From Actinomycetota bacterium (GTDB lineage Bacteria > Actinomycetota > UBA4738 > HRBIN12), in the NCBI GenBank assembly GCA_046094825.1, contig JBJTIF010000126.1, positions 8,989-72,988 of the forward strand: a DNA stretch of 64,000 bases, in the 5' to 3' direction. Shown one piece after another: positions 11,125-32,457 of the stretch; the first letter of the stretch is position 1, and the number at the start of each line of letters is the position of its first letter. The translations under genes were made by a program, and so were the position numbers. Under the pieces are notes generated by a model. That model saw nothing but the letters and a program-made list of their open reading frames with translations. It made no database searches and was not told the DNA's origin.

Positions 11125-11499
11125 ATGCCCGGCATGGAGATCGCGATGGCAGGAGCGACGGTCGGCTCGGGAGCGGCCCGGGGCACGGATCGGGTCCTCC
11201 GTGGGCACGATCGGGGCGTCTTCCTGCGGCGCCGCGTGCTCGTCGCGGCCCTCGCTGCCGTCATGGTCGGTCCCTGGGTCGGCCCGCTCCACGACGCGCT
11301 TTCGGGGTCCGGGGCGGCCCCGCTCCCCGTCTCGAGGGGCACCTACCTCGTCCGGCCCGGCGACACGCTCTGGAGCGTCGCCGAGCGCCTGGCTCCCGGC
11401 GAGGACCCCAGGCCCCTCGTGGACGCGATCGCCCTGGCCAACGGGCTGGACGCCCGCGGGCTCCAGGCAGGCACCACCCTCGTGATCCCCGCGCGTTGA
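11125..11499 (+). CDS. LysM-domain protein (SOS-inducible, Rv2719c-like); start could be 11125 or 11134
   Basis: N-terminal TM segment and a C-terminal LysM domain (YLVRPGDTLWSVAERL...GTTLVIP). It is divergent from lexA and has its own SOS box. Confidence 0.6.
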   Translation: MPGMEIAMAGATVGSGAARGTDRVLRGHDRGVFLRRRVLVAALAAVMVGPWVGPLHDALSGSGAAPLPVSRGTYLVRPGDTLWSVAERLAPGEDPRPLVDAIALANGLDARGLQAGTTLVIPAR

Positions 11500-11524
11500 C
11501 GCGCCGGGGCGGAGTCCCTATCCT
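11496..11524 (+). promoter_or_regulatory. Putative nrdR promoter (-35 TTGACG, 17-bp spacer, -10 TATCCT)
   Basis: Sigma-70-like hexamers 20-50 bp upstream of nrdR. This is a prediction only. Confidence 0.3.
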
Positions 11525-11544
11525 CGGCTTGCCCCCTACATCTT

Positions 11545-12027
11545 GTGGTGATGCCGATGCGCTGCCCCTGGTGCGCCCGCGAGGACGACAAGGTCATCGA
11601 CTCCCGTCCCGCTGACGGGGGAGCGGCCGTGCGCCGCCGCCGCCAGTGGCTCGCCGGCGGTCGGCGCGACAAGAACTTCGAGCGGGTCGAGGAGCTCGGT
11701 CTCACCGTCGTGAAGCGCAACGGGACCATGGAGCCCTACGACCGAGCGAAGCTCCTCGCCGGCATCGAGAAGGCCGTCGCGAACAGCCCCGTGACCGCCG
11801 ACCAGGTGGCCGCGGTGGTGGTCAGGATCGAGGACCGCCTCCGGAGGAAGGGCCCGCGGATCCGCTCCGAGCAGGTCGGCCTGGAGGTGCTCGCCGCCCT
11901 CGCGAAGCTCGACCAGGTGGCCTACCTCCGCTACGCGAGCGTCTACAAGGACTTCCAGGGCGCGAGCGACTTCGAGCGCGAGCTCGGGATCCTCCAGAAG
12001 AAGTCCGCCAAGCCCCGCACCCCCTGA
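11545..12027 (+). CDS. nrdR: Transcriptional repressor NrdR, with the second half of its zinc ribbon non-canonical; start more likely the ATG at 11557 (MRCPWC)
   Basis: CPWC is followed by VIDSR, RRRR and an ATP-cone (KRNGTMEPYDRAKL...). The second CxxC expected after RRRRQ is absent and reads QWLAGG instead. Confidence 0.8.
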   Translation: MVMPMRCPWCAREDDKVIDSRPADGGAAVRRRRQWLAGGRRDKNFERVEELGLTVVKRNGTMEPYDRAKLLAGIEKAVANSPVTADQVAAVVVRIEDRLRRKGPRIRSEQVGLEVLAALAKLDQVAYLRYASVYKDFQGASDFERELGILQKKSAKPRTP

Positions 12028-12046: not shown

Positions 12047-12062
12047 CCCCAACATGTTGGGG
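12047..12062. promoter_or_regulatory. Putative NrdR box 1 (perfect 16-bp palindrome CCCCAACATGTTGGGG)
   Basis: Palindrome with a C-A-A-x-ATxT-T-G core resembling the NrdR-box consensus. It lies in the nrdR-nrdJ gap. Confidence 0.45.
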
Positions 12063-12078: not shown

Positions 12079-12092
12079 GCACGATATCTTGC
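12079..12092. promoter_or_regulatory. Putative NrdR box 2 (GCACGATATCTTGC)
   Basis: Near-palindrome resembling CACtATATaGTG. Its centre is 31 bp from box 1, the typical tandem spacing. Confidence 0.4.
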
Positions 12093-12215
12093 CACGGGTG
12101 GCTTGACCGTGCCCGTCCCCGGCGGCAGAATCACGCCCCTGTCATTCCCGGCCGTTACGGTGCCGGGACGGCGGTCACGAACGGCAGCGATCAGGCGGAG
12201 TACGGGAAAGGGGCA

Positions 12216-14969
<2,754 letters not shown>

Positions 14970-15446: not shown

Positions 15447-15522
<76 letters not shown>

Positions 15523-15591
15523 AGCGCCTCTCGGGGCGTGGTCCCAACCCCGCCCCCTGTAGACTCCGGACATCGCGGTTCGCCGTGATCC

Positions 15592-15662
15592 GGCGGGGTG
15601 GCCGAGTGGTTAGGCAGCGGCCTGCAAAGCCGCGCACACCGGTTCAATTCCGGTCCCCGCCT
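15592..15662 (+). tRNA. tRNA-Cys (anticodon GCA)
   Basis: Acceptor GGCGGGG/CCCCGCC, anticodon loop CTGCAAA, T-loop GGTTCAATTCC. Confidence 0.8.
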
Positions 15663-15690
15663 CGAAGGCGGCCTGTAGCATGGCCACCGC

Positions 15691-15762
15691 GGGCGCTTAG
15701 CTCAGGGGCAGAGCGCTTCCTTGACACGGAAGAGGTCAGAGGTTCAATTCCTCTAGCGCCCA
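15691..15762 (+). tRNA. tRNA-Val (anticodon GAC)
   Basis: Acceptor GGGCGCT/AGCGCCC, anticodon loop TTGACAC, T-loop GGTTCAATTCC. Confidence 0.8.
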
Positions 15763-16125
15763 CCGCAGGTCCGAGAGCCCGAGCCTCCCGTGCGGGGTTC
15801 CCCCGCGGAGGATCGACCCGCTCCGCTCCTCGCTCCCGCCGCTCCCGAGCGGGCCGCGAACCGTTGCGCTCCTTGACAACCCTCCGGACGGCCTGTTCAC
15901 TGCGACCGCTCGCACGGCGGCGGCCGGTCAGGGACCCAGTTCATCCCTGCCCCCCAGGGCACCGGCCGACGCGGCGGGCGCGGAGGGGGCCGGGTGACCG
16001 GCCTCCTCCGTCCATCTCCGGTCGGGACGCGGCCGGGCGGCGGTCGGGGGGGCTGCGCCCGGATCGGGGTCCTCGCCGGCGCGCCGGGGAGGGCGCGTGG
16101 GCACCGCTGCTACGCTTGCGACCCC

Positions 16126-16197
16126 GGGCGCGTAGCTCAGTGGAAGAGCGCTCGCCTCACACGCGAGAGGTCGCAGGATCGAGTCCTGCCGCGCCCA
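16126..16197 (+). tRNA. tRNA-Val (anticodon CAC)
   Basis: Acceptor GGGCGCG/CGCGCCC, anticodon loop CTCACAC, T-loop GGATCGAGTCC. Confidence 0.8.
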
Positions 16198-16270
16198 CCC
16201 GGTGCACCGAGGGCCATCGCGTGCCGCGCACGGCGGCCGCCCGTCGGCGGACCCGAGGAGCGAGGGCGAG

Positions 16271-16999
16271 ATGACCGAGATCGCGGCGCGCGCGGAGGAC
16301 CTCCGGAAGGTCTACGGCCGGGGGGACGCGGAGGTCCGTGCCCTCGATGGGGTCACCGTCGAGTTCGGCCGCGGGGTCTTCACCGCGATCATGGGGCCGT
16401 CGGGGTCGGGGAAGTCCACGCTCCTCCACTGCCTCGCCGGGCTCGACGCCCCCACCTCCGGCAAGGTCTTCATCGGCGACACCGAACTCACCGCGCTCTC
16501 CGAACGGGACCTCACGCGCCTGCGCCGCGACCGGATCGGGTTCGTCTTCCAGGCCTTCAACCTCGTGCCGACGCTCACCGCGTCGGAGAACATCACGCTG
16601 CCGCTCGACATCGCCGGTCGCCGTCCCGACCGCGCGTGGTTCGACGAGGTCGTCGACACGATCGGGCTCCGCGACCGGCTCGGGCACCGTCCGAACGAGC
16701 TCTCCGGCGGGCAGCAGCAGCGCGTCGCCGGTGCCCGCGCGCTCGTCTCCCGCCCCGACATCGTCTTCGCCGACGAACCGACCGGCAACCTCGATTCGCG
16801 GTCCGGGGCGGAGCTCCTCGGGTTCCTCCGGGGCGCGGTGCGCACGCACGGCGAGACGATCGTCATGGTCACCCACGACGCGAACGCCGCGAGCTACGCC
16901 GACCGCGTCGTGTTCCTCGCCGACGGCCGCGTCGTCGGTGAGCTCCTCGGGCCGACGGCGGCGACGGTGCTCGATCGCCTGAAGTCCCTCGAGGGCTGA
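16271..16999 (+). CDS. ABC transporter ATP-binding protein, MacB/LolD-like
   Basis: Walker A GPSGSGKST, signature LSGGQQQRVAGARAL, Walker B IVFADEPTGNLD, H-loop. Confidence 0.85.
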   Translation: MTEIAARAEDLRKVYGRGDAEVRALDGVTVEFGRGVFTAIMGPSGSGKSTLLHCLAGLDAPTSGKVFIGDTELTALSERDLTRLRRDRIGFVFQAFNLVPTLTASENITLPLDIAGRRPDRAWFDEVVDTIGLRDRLGHRPNELSGGQQQRVAGARALVSRPDIVFADEPTGNLDSRSGAELLGFLRGAVRTHGETIVMVTHDANAASYADRVVFLADGRVVGELLGPTAATVLDRLKSLEG

Positions 17000-17004
17000 A
17001 GCCC

Positions 17005-19554
17005 GTGCTCCGCGCCACCTGGAAGAGCCTCCTCGCCCGGAAGGTGCGTCTCGCGCTCACGGTCGTCGCGATCGTGCTCGGGGTCGGGTTCGTCTCCGGC
17101 ACCTACGTCCTCACCGACACCCTCGACGCCGCGTTCTCCGAGGCCTTCTCGATCGCGACCGGCAGCGTCGACGTCGTCGTCCGCTCCGAGGCCGCGTTCG
17201 AGTCCGGCGGCACCGGCCCCGGGGGAGGGCGGACCGACGAGCGCGAACCGGTGCCGGAGTCGCTCCTCGAAGACGTCGCGCGGATCCCGGGCGTCGATCG
17301 GGTGACGGGGGAGATCACCGGGTACGCGCAGATGGTCGACGCGCAGGACGGGATGCCGATCGAGACGAGCGGTGCCCCGACCCTCGGGGTCGCGTGGAAC
17401 GACGGCACCGCGACGGTCACGATCCGCGAGGGCCGCAGGCCCATGGAGCGCGACGAGACGGCGATCGATGTCGTGACCGCCGAGGAGTACGGGATCGCGA
17501 TCGGCGACCCGATCGATGTGATCTTCACGACCGGTCCGCGCTCCTTCACCGTCGTCGGCACGATCGGGTTCCCGGGATCGGACAGCCTCGCCGGCACGAC
17601 GATCGCGGCGTTCGACGTCGCGACCGCACAGCGGGTCCTCGATCGACGGGGGGAGTTCGACACCCTCTCGGTGATGGGGGACGGCTCGATCGGGCCGGAG
17701 GCCCTGCGCGAGCGGGTCGTCGCCGCACTCCCGGAGGGCTACGAGGCGATCACGGGACAGGCCGCCGCCGCGCAGTCCGCCGAGCAGCTCCAGGAGGCCT
17801 TCGGGTTCTTCGGCACGGCGCTCCTCGTCTTCGCCGCGGTCGCGCTCTTCGTCGGGGCGGTCATCATCTTCAACACGTTCTCGATCGTCGTCGCGCAGCG
17901 CTCCCGCGAACTCGCCCTCCTGCGCGCTCTCGGCGCGAGCCGCGCGCAGGTGCGCGCCTCGGTCCTCGTCGAGGCGGCGATCCTCGGGGTGCTCGCCTCC
18001 GCCCTCGGCGTCGGAGCCGGGGTGCTCATCGCGTACGGGCTCCAGGGCCTCCTCGGGGCGTTCGGGCTCGACCTGCCGTCGACGACCTCCCGCGTCCTGC
18101 CGCGGACCGTCGTCGTCTCCTTCGTCCTCGGGACCGGCATCACGCTCGTGTCCGCGCTCCTGCCCGCGCGTCGCGCGTCCCGCGTCGCGCCGATCCAGGC
18201 CCTGCGGGCCGGGGAGGCTCCGCCCCAGGGCTCGCTCCGCACGCGCCTGCTCCTCGGCAGCCTCATCTCCCTCGCAGGCGTCGGGGTCCTGCTCGCCGGG
18301 CTCTTCGCCGAGGTGCCGGAACCGCTTCGGTTCCTCGGCGGCGGCGCAGCCGCGACCTTCCTCGGGGTCGCCGTCCTCGCGCCGACGTTCGCCCGCCGGC
18401 TCGCCGCGTGGATCGGGGCGCCGATCCGCCGCCTCGGGATCGCGGGCCGGCTCGGGCGGGAGAACGCGATGCGGAGCCCACGGCGCACGGCCTCGACCGC
18501 GTCCGCGCTCATGATCGGGCTCGGCCTCGTCGCGTTCGTCACGGTGTTCGCGGCCTCGCTCCGGGCGTCGTTCCTCGTGCGCCTCGGCGACACGCTCCGC
18601 GCCGACTTCATCCTCTCGACGACGCAGTACCAGCCCTTCAGCCCGAAGCTCGCTCGCGAGCTCGACCGCGACCCGCGGCTCGGCGCGGTGGCGGCGTTCC
18701 GGCTCGGCGAGGTGAAGATCCGGGGCGAGGTGACCCGCGTCGAGGGCGTCGACCCCGCGGACGCGACCGAGGTCATCGACCCGAAGGTCTCCGCGGGCGA
18801 CCTCGCGACGCTCGGCGACGACGGGATCGCGGTCCTCCGTCGAACGGCGGGAGACCTCGGGCTCGCGCTCGGGGACCGCGTCCGGGTGACGTTCGCGCGG
18901 ACGGGGAAGCAGGACTTCACCGTCCGGGCGTTGTTCGACGAGGAGCGCGCGTTCAACGCCCCGTGGGCGATCTCGCTCGACGCCTATCGCGCGAACTTCT
19001 CCGAGACGCTCGACCTCGTCGTCGGCGTCACGGCCGCTCCGGGTGTGACGCGGGCCGAGGCCCGCGAGGCGGTCGACGCGGTGCTCGATGACTACCCGAA
19101 CGTCCGGGCCTACGACCAGGCGCAGTACCGGGCCCAGCAGGAGGACTTCATCGACCAGCTCCTCGGGCTCATCACGGCGCTCCTCGGGCTCGCGATCCTC
19201 ATCGCGCTCTTCGGCATCGTGAACACGCTCGGGCTCTCGATCTTCGAGCGGACCCGGGAGATCGGGCTCCTGCGAGCGGTCGGGATGAGCCGACGGCAGC
19301 TCCGAGCGATGATCCGCTGGGAGTCCGTCATCATCGCGATCCTCGGCGCCCTCCTCGGCATCGCGATCGGGGTCTTCTTCGGCTGGGGCCTGCAGCGGGC
19401 GCTCGAGCCGGAGGGCGTGACGGAGCTCCGCATCCCCGTCGACCGACTCGCCCTCGACGTCATCGCCGCCGCGGTCGCCGGGGTCCTCGCCGCGGTGCTC
19501 CCCGCACGGCGCGCCGCCCGCCTCGACGTCCTCGACGCGATCGCGTACGAGTAG
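17005..19554 (+). CDS. ABC transporter permease with two FtsX-like domains (849 aa, MacB/DevC-like)
   Basis: Two TM bundles, each preceded by a large extracytoplasmic domain, following the FtsX/MacB permease pattern. It is adjacent to the ATPase. Confidence 0.85.
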   Translation: MLRATWKSLLARKVRLALTVVAIVLGVGFVSGTYVLTDTLDAAFSEAFSIATGSVDVVVRSEAAFESGGTGPGGGRTDEREPVPESLLEDVARIPGVDRVTGEITGYAQMVDAQDGMPIETSGAPTLGVAWNDGTATVTIREGRRPMERDETAIDVVTAEEYGIAIGDPIDVIFTTGPRSFTVVGTIGFPGSDSLAGTTIAAFDVATAQRVLDRRGEFDTLSVMGDGSIGPEALRERVVAALPEGYEAITGQAAAAQSAEQLQEAFGFFGTALLVFAAVALFVGAVIIFNTFSIVVAQRSRELALLRALGASRAQVRASVLVEAAILGVLASALGVGAGVLIAYGLQGLLGAFGLDLPSTTSRVLPRTVVVSFVLGTGITLVSALLPARRASRVAPIQALRAGEAPPQGSLRTRLLLGSLISLAGVGVLLAGLFAEVPEPLRFLGGGAAATFLGVAVLAPTFARRLAAWIGAPIRRLGIAGRLGRENAMRSPRRTASTASALMIGLGLVAFVTVFAASLRASFLVRLGDTLRADFILSTTQYQPFSPKLARELDRDPRLGAVAAFRLGEVKIRGEVTRVEGVDPADATEVIDPKVSAGDLATLGDDGIAVLRRTAGDLGLALGDRVRVTFARTGKQDFTVRALFDEERAFNAPWAISLDAYRANFSETLDLVVGVTAAPGVTRAEAREAVDAVLDDYPNVRAYDQAQYRAQQEDFIDQLLGLITALLGLAILIALFGIVNTLGLSIFERTREIGLLRAVGMSRRQLRAMIRWESVIIAILGALLGIAIGVFFGWGLQRALEPEGVTELRIPVDRLALDVIAAAVAGVLAAVLPARRAARLDVLDAIAYE

Positions 19555-19589
19555 CGGTCGGCCCGGGTCGGCGCGATAGCATCCCCCGC

Positions 19590-21515
19590 ATGCCCGAGGT
19601 GACCCTCCCGGACGACCGGCGCGTCGCGCTCCCCGAGGGGGAGCCGATCGGGTCGGTCCTGCAGCCCGACGCGATCGCCGCGCGCTGGAACGGCGAGCTC
19701 ACGGACCTCGCCCCCGTGCCGGCGGGATCCGGCTCACTCGCCCCGGTCGTCGCGTCCTCGAAGGACGGACTCCACGTCCTCCGCCACTCGACCGCGCACG
19801 TGATGGCCCAGGCGGTCTGCGACCTCTACCCGGGCGCGCGGTACGCGATCGGGCCGGCGATCGACGATGGCTTCTACTACGACTTCGAGCTCCCTGCGCC
19901 GCTCTCCCCGGAGGACCTCCCGCGGATCGAGGAGCGCATGGCCGCGATCAAGGCCGCCGACCAGCCGTTCGTCCGCGAGGAACTGCCGCGCACCGAGGCC
20001 CTCGACCGGTTCGCCGACCAGCCGTTCAAGCGGGAGATCATCGAGGGACTCGACGCGACCGAGGGGGCGACGGGGGAGACCGTCTCCGTGTACCGCAACG
20101 CCGCGTGGGGCGATCTCTGCCTCGGGCCGCACGTGCCATCGACGGGGCGGCTCGGAGCGTTCAAGCTCACGAAGCTCGCCGGAGCGTACTGGCGCGGCGA
20201 CAGCACGCGGCCGATGCTCACGCGGATCTACGGCACCGCCTGGGCCACGGAGAAGGACCTCCGCGCGTACCTCGCCCGGCTCGCCGAAGCGGAGAAGCGC
20301 GACCACCGTCGCCTCGGGCAGCAACTCGATCTCTTCTCGTTCCCCGAGGAACTCGGACCGGGCCTCGCGGTCTGGCATCCGAACGGGGGCATCTTCCGCA
20401 AGCAGCTCGAGGACTACGTCCGCGACCTCCACCTCGCGCGCGGCTACGACCTCGTGCAGTCGCCGCACGTCGCCCGCCGGGTCCTGTGGGACACCTCGGG
20501 GCACACCGCGAAGTACGTCGAGAACATGTTCCCGGAGATGGTCCGCGACGAGGCCGCGTACTTCGCGAAGCCGATGAACTGCCCGTTCCACGTGCTCATC
20601 TACAAGAGCCAGGTGCGCTCGTACCGCGACCTGCCGATGCGGCTGTCCGAGCTCGGGACCGTGTACCGCTACGAGAAGCTCGGGACGCTCCACGGCCTGC
20701 TCCGGGCGCGCGGCCTCACCCAGGACGACTCCCACATCATCTGCCGCGAGGACCAGCTCGTCGACGAGATCCGGCGCGTCTTCGAGCTCACGCTCGAGAT
20801 CCACCGGACCTTCGGGTTCGCCGACCCCGAGGTCCACCTCTCGACGAAGCCCGGGCTGGCGATCGGCGACGAGGCGATGTGGGCGCGCGCGATCGACGCG
20901 CTGCGTGCGGCGCTCGACGGTAGCGGTCTGTCCTACGAGGTCGCCGAGGGCGAGGGCGCGTTCTACGGCCCGAAGGTCGACTTCCACTTCCACGATGCGA
21001 TCGGTCGCCGTTGGCAGCTCACGACCGTGCAGTGCGACTTCGCCCTCCCGGAGCGCTTCGGGATGGAGTACGTCGGCGAGGACAACGAACGGCACCGACC
21101 GGCCATGGTCCACCGCGCGATCCTCGGCTCGATCGAGCGCTTCAGCGGGGTGCTCATCGAGCACTTCGCCGGCGCCTTCCCGCTCTGGCTCGCGCCGGAG
21201 CAGGTGCGTCTGCTCCCCGTCGCGGACCGGCACCTCGACCACGCGCGGGCGCTCGCGGATCGCTTCGTCGCCGCGGGGCTCCGCGCGCGGGTCGACGAGA
21301 GCTCCGAGACGGTCGGCAAGCGGGTCCGTGCCGCGCAGCTCATGAAGATCCCCTACGTGCTCGTCGTCGGCGACGCCGAGGCGGCCGGCGGCGGGCTCAC
21401 CGTCCGCGATCGCGCCGGCACGGAGACGAAGGACGTCGAGGTCGAGCGCTTCGTCGATGCGCTCGGACGGGAGATCGCGACGAAGGCGCTCGTCCAGACC
21501 GCGTTCGGGGGTTGA
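19590..21515 (+). CDS. thrS: Threonine--tRNA ligase
   Basis: Full-length class II aaRS with a TGS/second additional domain, motifs HRDLPMRLSELG and FYGPKVD. Confidence 0.9.
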   Translation: MPEVTLPDDRRVALPEGEPIGSVLQPDAIAARWNGELTDLAPVPAGSGSLAPVVASSKDGLHVLRHSTAHVMAQAVCDLYPGARYAIGPAIDDGFYYDFELPAPLSPEDLPRIEERMAAIKAADQPFVREELPRTEALDRFADQPFKREIIEGLDATEGATGETVSVYRNAAWGDLCLGPHVPSTGRLGAFKLTKLAGAYWRGDSTRPMLTRIYGTAWATEKDLRAYLARLAEAEKRDHRRLGQQLDLFSFPEELGPGLAVWHPNGGIFRKQLEDYVRDLHLARGYDLVQSPHVARRVLWDTSGHTAKYVENMFPEMVRDEAAYFAKPMNCPFHVLIYKSQVRSYRDLPMRLSELGTVYRYEKLGTLHGLLRARGLTQDDSHIICREDQLVDEIRRVFELTLEIHRTFGFADPEVHLSTKPGLAIGDEAMWARAIDALRAALDGSGLSYEVAEGEGAFYGPKVDFHFHDAIGRRWQLTTVQCDFALPERFGMEYVGEDNERHRPAMVHRAILGSIERFSGVLIEHFAGAFPLWLAPEQVRLLPVADRHLDHARALADRFVAAGLRARVDESSETVGKRVRAAQLMKIPYVLVVGDAEAAGGGLTVRDRAGTETKDVEVERFVDALGREIATKALVQTAFGG

Positions 21516-32028: not shown

Positions 32029-32429
32029 TCGCGGCGCCCCGGGTCTTCCCGATCCGCTTCGACGGCATCTCGCGACCGATGGCGCTCATCGGGTTCACCA
32101 GGGCGGGGTCCCGGGTCGTCCTCGAGGAGCGCGACCTCGACGTGCGGATGGGCTGGGGGTTCGCGCTCCGGGTGCCGCGGGCCGCGGTGCGGACCGCGGC
32201 ACCCGACCACCGGCCGCTCCTCGATCGCGGCGTCCACGGCTGGTTCGGTCGGTGGAACGTCGCGGCCTCGTCGCGCGGCCTCGTCCGGATCGAGTTCGCG
32301 AGCCCGGTCGCCGCCCGCGTCGGCCCGGTCCCCGTGCGCGTACGGACGCTCCGCGTGAGCCTCGAGGAGCCGGAGGCCTTCCTCCTCGCGCTCGAGGCGC
32401 CCGCCGCGGCTCCGCCCGACGCCGGGTGA
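32025..32429 (+). CDS. Hypothetical protein (134 aa), translationally coupled to yebC
   Basis: GTG overlaps the yebC stop. The translation is not simple GC noise (MGWGFALRVP...VHGWFGRWNV...GLVRIEF) but could not be assigned a family. Confidence 0.4.
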
Positions 32430-32457
32430 TTGCCCGGGCTCCCGGGCGACCCTAGAC

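Follow-up and report, generated by a model that had tools for sequence, protein, structure and literature searches.

The nrdR gene in the stretch of actinobacterial DNA analysed here (64 kb in full, referred to below as the window) raises a simple question: does it encode a new kind of NrdR repressor, a broken one, or a protein that exists only in a deposited sequence? The coding sequence (11557–12027, + strand) comprises 156 amino acids plus the stop codon, matches the Pfam Zn_ribbon_NrdR and ATP-cone models as well as TIGR00244, and its translation begins MRCPWCAREDDKVIDSRPADGGAAVRRRRQWLAGGRRDKNFERVEE. The GenBank start is ATG 11551, two codons before 11557. The first zinc knuckle, C3-P-W-C6 (11563–11574, +), is intact, and both C3 and C6 are invariant alignment columns. 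Further on the protein reads RRRRQWLAGGRRDKNFE, where the family consensus is RRRR-x-CxxC-x-RR(Y/F)TTFE. The initial annotation had reported that the second CxxC is missing at 11644–11662, and this is indeed what is found: the interval covers Q30–G35, with Trp at position 31 and Gly at position 34 in place of the two cysteines. In addition, the conserved strand (Y/F)-T-T-(F/Y)-E is replaced by D-K-N-F-E.

The lost knuckle is reflected in the domain scores. With TIGR00244 (the NrdR equivalog model, cut-off 124.65) the window protein reaches 141.6 bits and so passes, compared with 163.6 bits for the wild-type allele of the sister samples described below. With Zn_ribbon_NrdR (PF22811) it reaches 47.7 bits over model positions 1–37 of 42, while the wild type reaches 71.2 bits over positions 1–42, a difference of 23.5 bits. 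The ATP-cone domain (amino acids 50–134; 11704–11958, +) is identical to that of the wild type and scores 61 bits with PF03477 in both alleles; the earlier statement that it is intact is thus correct. In the alignment to the Streptomyces coelicolor NrdR structure 7P37, the window residues K53, R54, E59 and K65 correspond to K50, R51, E56 and K62, and the VY of the window ASVY motif corresponds to V127-Y128; the nucleotide-site roles of these S. coelicolor residues have been described (PMC9110341). All the DNA-contact residues (D15, R17, R26–R29 and R36–R37) are kept, along with E42; D15, R17, R26, R28 and R37 belong to the invariant alignment columns.

The gene stands among hflX, lexA (on the minus strand), a LysM protein gene, nrdR, class II nrdJ and dut. 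Orthology by descent is evident from the common locus and from flanks that are 99.0–99.6% identical in DNA to those of bona fide alleles, and no second nrdR copy is present within the 64-kb window. The window gene is therefore an ordinary nrdR orthologue in the lexA / LysM / nrdR / nrdJ / dut arrangement. Every tested feature by which NrdR proteins are recognized is found in it apart from the second CxxC and the (Y/F)TT strand, and these two are wanting in one record only.

The nature of the difference can be seen from comparison with sister samples, namely the Logan assemblies of the run series SRR29270164 to -192. Twenty contigs passing a threshold of 99% identity together span 15.5 kb of the window; they are 99.0–99.9% identical to it, with zero indels. 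Four of them (L067, L068, L069 and L084, from SRR29270164, -182, -184 and -192) cover the altered part of the gene; they are 99.0–99.6% identical to the window around nrdR and all four read CLACGRRYTTF. Relative to them the window carries a patch of five private transversions within 27 nt (11649–11675, +), at each of which all four overlapping contigs from the other runs have the canonical base: C>G at 11649 (TGC>TGG, C31W), T>G at 11656 (TGC>GGC, C34G), T>G at 11668 (TAC>GAC, Y38D), C>A at 11672 (ACG>AAG, T39K) and C>A at 11675 (ACC>AAC, T40N). The patch removes the second zinc knuckle and changes the start of β-strand 3. Each of the five is non-synonymous, and four belong to the A<->C or G<->T class; stop codons and frameshifts are not introduced, and the arginines are spared. 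The remaining 444 nt of nrdR contain no private difference, and a haplotype with a subset of the five changes was found in none of the samples compared. A frameshift or an alternative reading frame was rejected, in agreement with the initial annotation: the changes are pure substitutions with no indel against the wild-type alleles, and CxxC is absent from all five other frames of 11617–11700.

The wild-type allele P0127 differs from the window protein at six residues (96% identity), five of which lie in the patch. Position 11575 is polymorphic in the population (A7 or T7): L069 shares the N-terminal haplotype CPWCA of the window, and the other three contigs read CPWCT. Within the part of nrdR covered by L069, this contig differs from the window at the five patch positions only. 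The initial annotation had named restoration of a CxxC by re-sequencing as the outcome that would overturn its reading, and this has come about in part, in the form of four assemblies of other runs, including the haplotype-matched L069. Inside the same stretch, position 11661 shows a synonymous GGT/GGC polymorphism in SRR29270184 (L068), and L069 ends exactly one k-mer (31 nt) past this position. On this evidence both 11661 alleles probably coexist in SRR29270164, and in the population the stretch seems to be evolving normally, under purifying selection. At another place of the window (32204–32450, just upstream of ruvC) contig L081 (positions 26–270; SRR29270182) shows a sharp divergence with many substitutions and several indels, and identity reaches about 99.7% further downstream, as would be expected of a strain-variable segment or a recombination boundary.

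Comparison across the family leads to the same picture. All 28 aligned relatives (66–94% identity) read RRRR-x-CxxC-x-RR(Y/F)TTFE. The second CxxC is kept in 132 of the 133 related proteins retrieved, the sole exception being P0122, and in all 63 genomic homologues, which range from Actinomycetota to Pseudomonas, Rickettsiales and Saccharibacteria. After the second knuckle the related proteins read (Y/F)(T/S)(T/S)(F/Y)E, and so do the genomic homologues, a few of which carry N as residue 39 or V/A as residue 41. As judged from these alignments, the missing cysteine pair lies far outside the normal variation of the family. Of 17 proteins listed for the four nearest clusters, P0122 alone carries the variant. 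This protein, a 158-amino-acid form identical to the window protein, is MFM8999723.1 from one metagenome-assembled genome (MAG) labelled 'Actinomycetota bacterium', where it lies on a contig of 74,241 nt. Since 17 of 20 other window proteins are found exactly under MFM8999713-768, from the same contig (the other three are alternative start guesses), P0122 is the window's own record. The 156-amino-acid form is absent from both the protein collection and the contig index, and no contig encoding the 158-amino-acid form is on record in that index. The variant thus appears to be confined to one assembled genome and not to be a property of the lineage, and the reading implied by the initial annotation, in which it is a feature of the organism's NrdR, is not supported. 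A clade-level variant was rejected, as no relative shares the patch changes; in particular, orthologues of the same clade with the QWLAGG sequence, whose existence the initial annotation had allowed for, were not found.

How unusual such a cluster is can be estimated from the rest of the compared DNA. A difference was considered private when the window base was unlike that of every overlapping contig, using contigs of at least 99% identity over 15,504 window positions. There are 37 such differences (about 0.24%, or roughly one per 420 nt), and the nrdR patch is the only cluster of at least three within 30 nt. The simulated probability of finding five within 27 nt is 1.3e-5 (26 differences over the first 10,768 nt). 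Outside the patch, the same 10.8 kb contain 17 private coding differences, 11 of them synonymous and 6 non-synonymous, and the excess of non-synonymous changes in the patch (5/5 vs 6/17) gives a two-sided Fisher value of 0.035. The synonymous bias, together with the lack of indels, indicates that the consensus is generally trustworthy and that the MAG represents a real strain of slight divergence. A generally error-ridden assembly was rejected on the same grounds and for want of a second cluster in 15.5 kb. Two further private bases lie near nrdR, C>A at 11513 (in the spacer of the nrdR promoter-like site) and C>A at 12094 (the last position of the second nrdJ box); their density is not above the background of private differences. 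The NusB, RecA and MiaB alleles of the MAG are present only in NCBI, NusB with a private I>L change, and its private LexA allele (A>T) is on record nowhere else.

The regulatory sites around the gene are well preserved. Two promoter-like sites were found, with 0.0 expected in shuffled sequences. That of nrdR (11496–11524, +; TTGACG, 17 nt, TATCCT) is followed immediately by an NrdR box at 11533–11548 (CCCCTACATCTTGTGG), with a 10-nt core beginning 21 nt ahead of the nrdR ATG and close to where transcription is predicted to start; a partner for this box was not found. The presence of NrdR boxes upstream of nrdJ, pointed out in the initial annotation, holds: box 1 (12047–12062, CCCCAACATGTTGGGG) is identical in the wild-type contigs, and box 2 (12079–12094, GCACGATATCTTGCCA) follows at a core or centre distance of 32 nt, which leaves a spacer of 15–16 bp depending on the register. 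A spacer of this length is canonical (PMC12051234). The two form the only pair of boxes 30–33 nt apart in the window. Perfect-core boxes occur twice in the 64 kb (11533–11548 and 12047–12062), with 0.13 expected by chance for the pattern, and the boxes are identical in the wild-type contigs except for the private base 12094. In all 27 related loci (L001–L027) a box lies 19–58 nt upstream of nrdR, and in 20 of the 27 a strong pair spaced by 32–33 nt stands directly after nrdR, so the layout is conserved in related loci and characterises the regulation of these genes throughout the clade. Some of the 27 loci also have a weaker second box 31–32 nt further upstream of nrdR.

The downstream gene nrdJ (12219–14969, +), encoding a class II (B12-dependent) ribonucleotide reductase (Ribonuc_red_lgC 481 bits, Ribonuc_red_2_N, TSCPD), is the presumed target of NrdR repression. 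Its own promoter-like site (TTGACC at 12103, CAGAAT at 12126) is situated downstream of the boxes. Automatic gene calling on L067 starts nrdJ at an ATG inside box 1 (L067:1764, corresponding to window 12054), because the frame is open from 11646; GTG at 12216 or 12219, after GGGAAAGGGG, is the likelier start. Further along the window, four tRNA genes stand in a row at 15447–16198 downstream of dut (Rfam RF00005, 64–73 bits). Two ORFs with coding-type GC3 (16942–19554 and 19092–21515, +), located downstream of an ABC-transporter ATPase gene, overlap by about 460 nt, which corresponds to either a misplaced start or a frameshift in a permease gene.

The consequence for the protein can be predicted from the known structures. 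In E. coli NrdR the zinc ligands are C3, C6, C31 and C34, residues 39–45 form the antiparallel strand that pairs two zinc ribbons, and the residues facing the DNA are D15, R17, R26, R28 and R37 (PMC12176259). In S. coelicolor NrdR, pairs of ribbons bind the boxes via arginines, D15 and R17 provide specificity, and the protein without its zinc ribbon forms dimers only (PMC9110341). The window NrdR loses two of the four zinc ligands, the aromatic residue Y38 and the first residues of the pairing strand. Loss of zinc binding is predicted from the missing ligands C31 and C34. Loss of DNA binding by the encoded protein is a reasonable expectation, as these two cysteines are zinc ligands (PMC12176259), and the sequence as written would be that of a DNA-binding-dead NrdR irrespective of whether it arose by error or by mutation. 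In such a protein the ribbon would not fold around zinc, ribbon pairs and tetramers would not form, the NrdR boxes would stay unbound, and both nrdJ and nrdR would be derepressed at all times; the ATP-cone should go on binding nucleotides and dimerising. Retention of all the DNA-contact residues and of E42 speaks against loss of function. Deletion of nrdR is reported to be tolerated in E. coli (PMC4898720).

The patch is the result of a single very recent event and not an evolved NrdR variant: from its distribution it would be either a one-off null allele or an assembly error. The comparisons show the patch itself, its confinement to this record, its young age and its statistical oddity, and from these the loss of function and the choice between error and mutation are inferred. 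The boxes next to a broken repressor, to which the initial annotation had drawn attention, present no paradox since the lesion is too young for the boxes to have decayed. Accordingly this is no novel type of NrdR: the system is a known one, carrying either a private allele that looks null or an error.

Most likely the patch does not belong to the gene of the living population and is a local consensus or assembly error, a reading to which we give about an even chance. The error would have occurred after the (GCC)4 run, inside a G+C-rich inverted repeat (11631–11667), in which GCGCCGCCGCCG (11631–11642) is opposed to CGGCGG-T-CGGCGC (11655–11667). The repeat comes after the (GCC)4 run and overlaps the beginning of the patch, which starts 5 nt past the run. 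G+C-rich inverted-repeat contexts are prone to coverage drop-outs and sequence-specific miscalls. The composition of the patch, five transversions with four of them A<->C or G<->T, also points in this direction, and a selected loss of nrdR would far more probably arise by a simple mutation than by a cluster of five bases. Some of the local evidence is indifferent. The change at 11656 (T>G) adds two pairs to the stem of the inverted repeat and no other patch change improves the local hairpin; the folding energy of the repeat is no better than that of shuffles (DNA folds, both window and wild-type versions). As to a lagging- or leading-phase signature of miscalling, three of the five new bases are the same as the preceding base, which is not significant. 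Against an error stands the quality of the contig, with no indel against 20 contigs and no other error-like cluster in the 15.5 kb compared. The predominance of synonymous changes (11/17) is a signature of real, selection-filtered strain divergence and not of noise. For a de Bruijn assembler to follow such a path, several reads would normally have to concur at each of the five bases, and oxidative damage in vivo likewise gives rise to A<->C and G<->T changes. The absence of the variant elsewhere is no proof of error, as the private NusB and LexA alleles of this MAG are equally unseen.

A genuine multi-nucleotide mutation that occurred in one step is nearly as likely as an error. It is quite possible, at somewhat under even probability, that the patch is a real strain-private null allele created by a single event, either an error-prone repair-synthesis patch or clustered oxidative lesions, and that the strain lives without NrdR repression and expresses nrdJ and nrdR constitutively. 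The MAG does represent a distinct strain (37 private differences in 15.5 kb) with a trustworthy consensus, the five-base path must have had enough support to be assembled inside a 74-kb contig, and the reading frame is undamaged. The four A<->C or G<->T changes belong to the G:C>T:A or A:T>C:G classes, which are typical of oxidised guanine. It is very rare, however, for a single mutation to leave five substitutions in 27 nt, and a knock-out that is selected or drifting would be expected to be a simple mutation. No mutational signature links the changes to a mechanism, only one of the five fitting quasi-palindrome correction. The variant is unseen in four sister samples and in the remaining listed proteins of the four closest clusters. 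A scan of JGI metagenomes with a codon-degenerate pattern for WLAGGRRDKNFE gave 0 hits, as did a strain-exact pattern with N at the five positions, so that even the wild-type codons of the strain are missing from this collection; these scans have low power, since the strain-exact pattern would match the wild-type allele too and yet found nothing. The literature on long-term evolution experiments yielded no usable case of parallel nrdR mutation, and no paper was found for the run accessions.

It is improbable in the extreme that the gene encodes an evolved functional NrdR, one which binds DNA without the second knuckle (using D38 or other ligands) or serves as a DNA-free ATP/dATP sensor. The frame is open, the ATP-cone and the known DNA-contact residues (PMC9110341, PMC12176259) are kept, and the uniformly non-synonymous hits avoid the arginines. 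On the other side, none of the five changes occurs in any relative at any distance, intermediate haplotypes are lacking, and the loss of two Cys ligands plus a conserved aromatic residue is a classic destabilising combination. The zero private divergence in the rest of nrdR leaves no time for adaptive remodelling; together with the lack of intermediate haplotypes, it excludes both such remodelling and gradual decay. It is likewise very unlikely that the patch is real and the protein still in use, the knuckle having been shed in one step with the arginine surface and the ATP-cone kept. If this were true, the protein could be a non-repressing nucleotide sensor or a dominant-negative partner, and the organism would be a wild, constitutively RNR-derepressed strain of an uncultured actinobacterium.

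Import of the patch by recombination or ectopic gene conversion, from the nrdR of another lineage, a degenerate paralogue or a template repeat of the diversity-generating (DGR) type, is hardly probable either. Where near-identical bacterial genomes differ in a dense cluster, a recombination tract is usually responsible. No donor can be pointed to. The best ungapped match to the 35-nt variant elsewhere in the window, on either strand, is 23/35, and the wild-type sequence gives an equal one; sub-segments with at most three mismatches give background matches only. Among related loci (734 kb), strong matches are confined to orthologous nrdR stretches, and all of these lack the variant bases. Moreover, a donor nrdR would carry synonymous changes and canonical residues, and the window has no second nrdR. 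A DGR does not fit, for want of both adenine specificity in the changes and a template repeat. Gene conversion, template switching and DGR activity were rejected for lack of a donor in the window or in these 734 kb. The least probable reading, stepwise decay of nrdR under relaxed selection with the ribbon decaying first, agrees with the hits on conserved residues, as expected after function is lost, and is already effectively refuted by the distribution of the differences, because neutral changes would scatter and include synonymous ones, whereas here all five fall within 27 nt (clustering P about 1e-5), the other 444 nt are unchanged, and so are the boxes and the promoter apart from the single bases at 11513 and 12094.

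The biological weight of the patch is small, as it is an anomaly in one deposited MAG that has arisen or been introduced in one step. A real allele would mean that RNR repression has been knocked out naturally in an uncultured actinobacterium of soil or sediment, by a multi-nucleotide mutation of unusual size, which would be of modest interest for work on mutation spectra. The practical lesson is that when an invariant motif is lost in a MAG, near-identical sequences from sister samples should be compared first; here, doing so reveals immediately that the population has kept the motif intact. The record MFM8999723.1 is to be treated as suspect over the patch stretch.

The circuit of NrdR, NrdR boxes and class II RNR is textbook knowledge, and the locus may be placed beside its known representatives. 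One of these is the sister wild-type allele (P0127; contigs L067, L068, L069 and L084), with 99.0–99.6% nucleotide identity over 0.9–3 kb and with identical ATP-cone, promoter-like sites and neighbours; within nrdR it differs at the five patch positions and by the 11575 and synonymous 11661 polymorphisms. The best match among solved structures is S. coelicolor NrdR (7P37, 7P3F, 7P3Q; E = 3e-32 over residues 1–153), the repressor of nrdRJ and nrdAB. The two have in common the order of zinc ribbon and ATP-cone, the position of nrdR directly upstream of class II nrdJ, the paired 16-bp palindromic boxes with a 15–16 bp spacer, the DNA-contact residues D15, R17 and RRRR, and the nucleotide-site residues of the ATP-cone. 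In contrast to S. coelicolor NrdR, the window protein has W and G at the positions of the zinc ligands Cys31 and Cys34, D-K-N in place of F38-T39-T40, and three extra linker residues, as in E. coli; in the clade of the window, the nrdR–nrdJ interval holds the main box pair, and one further box stands alone ahead of nrdR. In functional terms, the expected equivalent of the window protein is the engineered S. coelicolor NrdR without its zinc ribbon (PMC9110341), in which the ATP-cone is intact and the ribbon non-functional, and which forms dimers only and no DNA-binding tetramer. Unlike in that construct, the ribbon residues of the window protein are present, and they are predicted not to fold around zinc.
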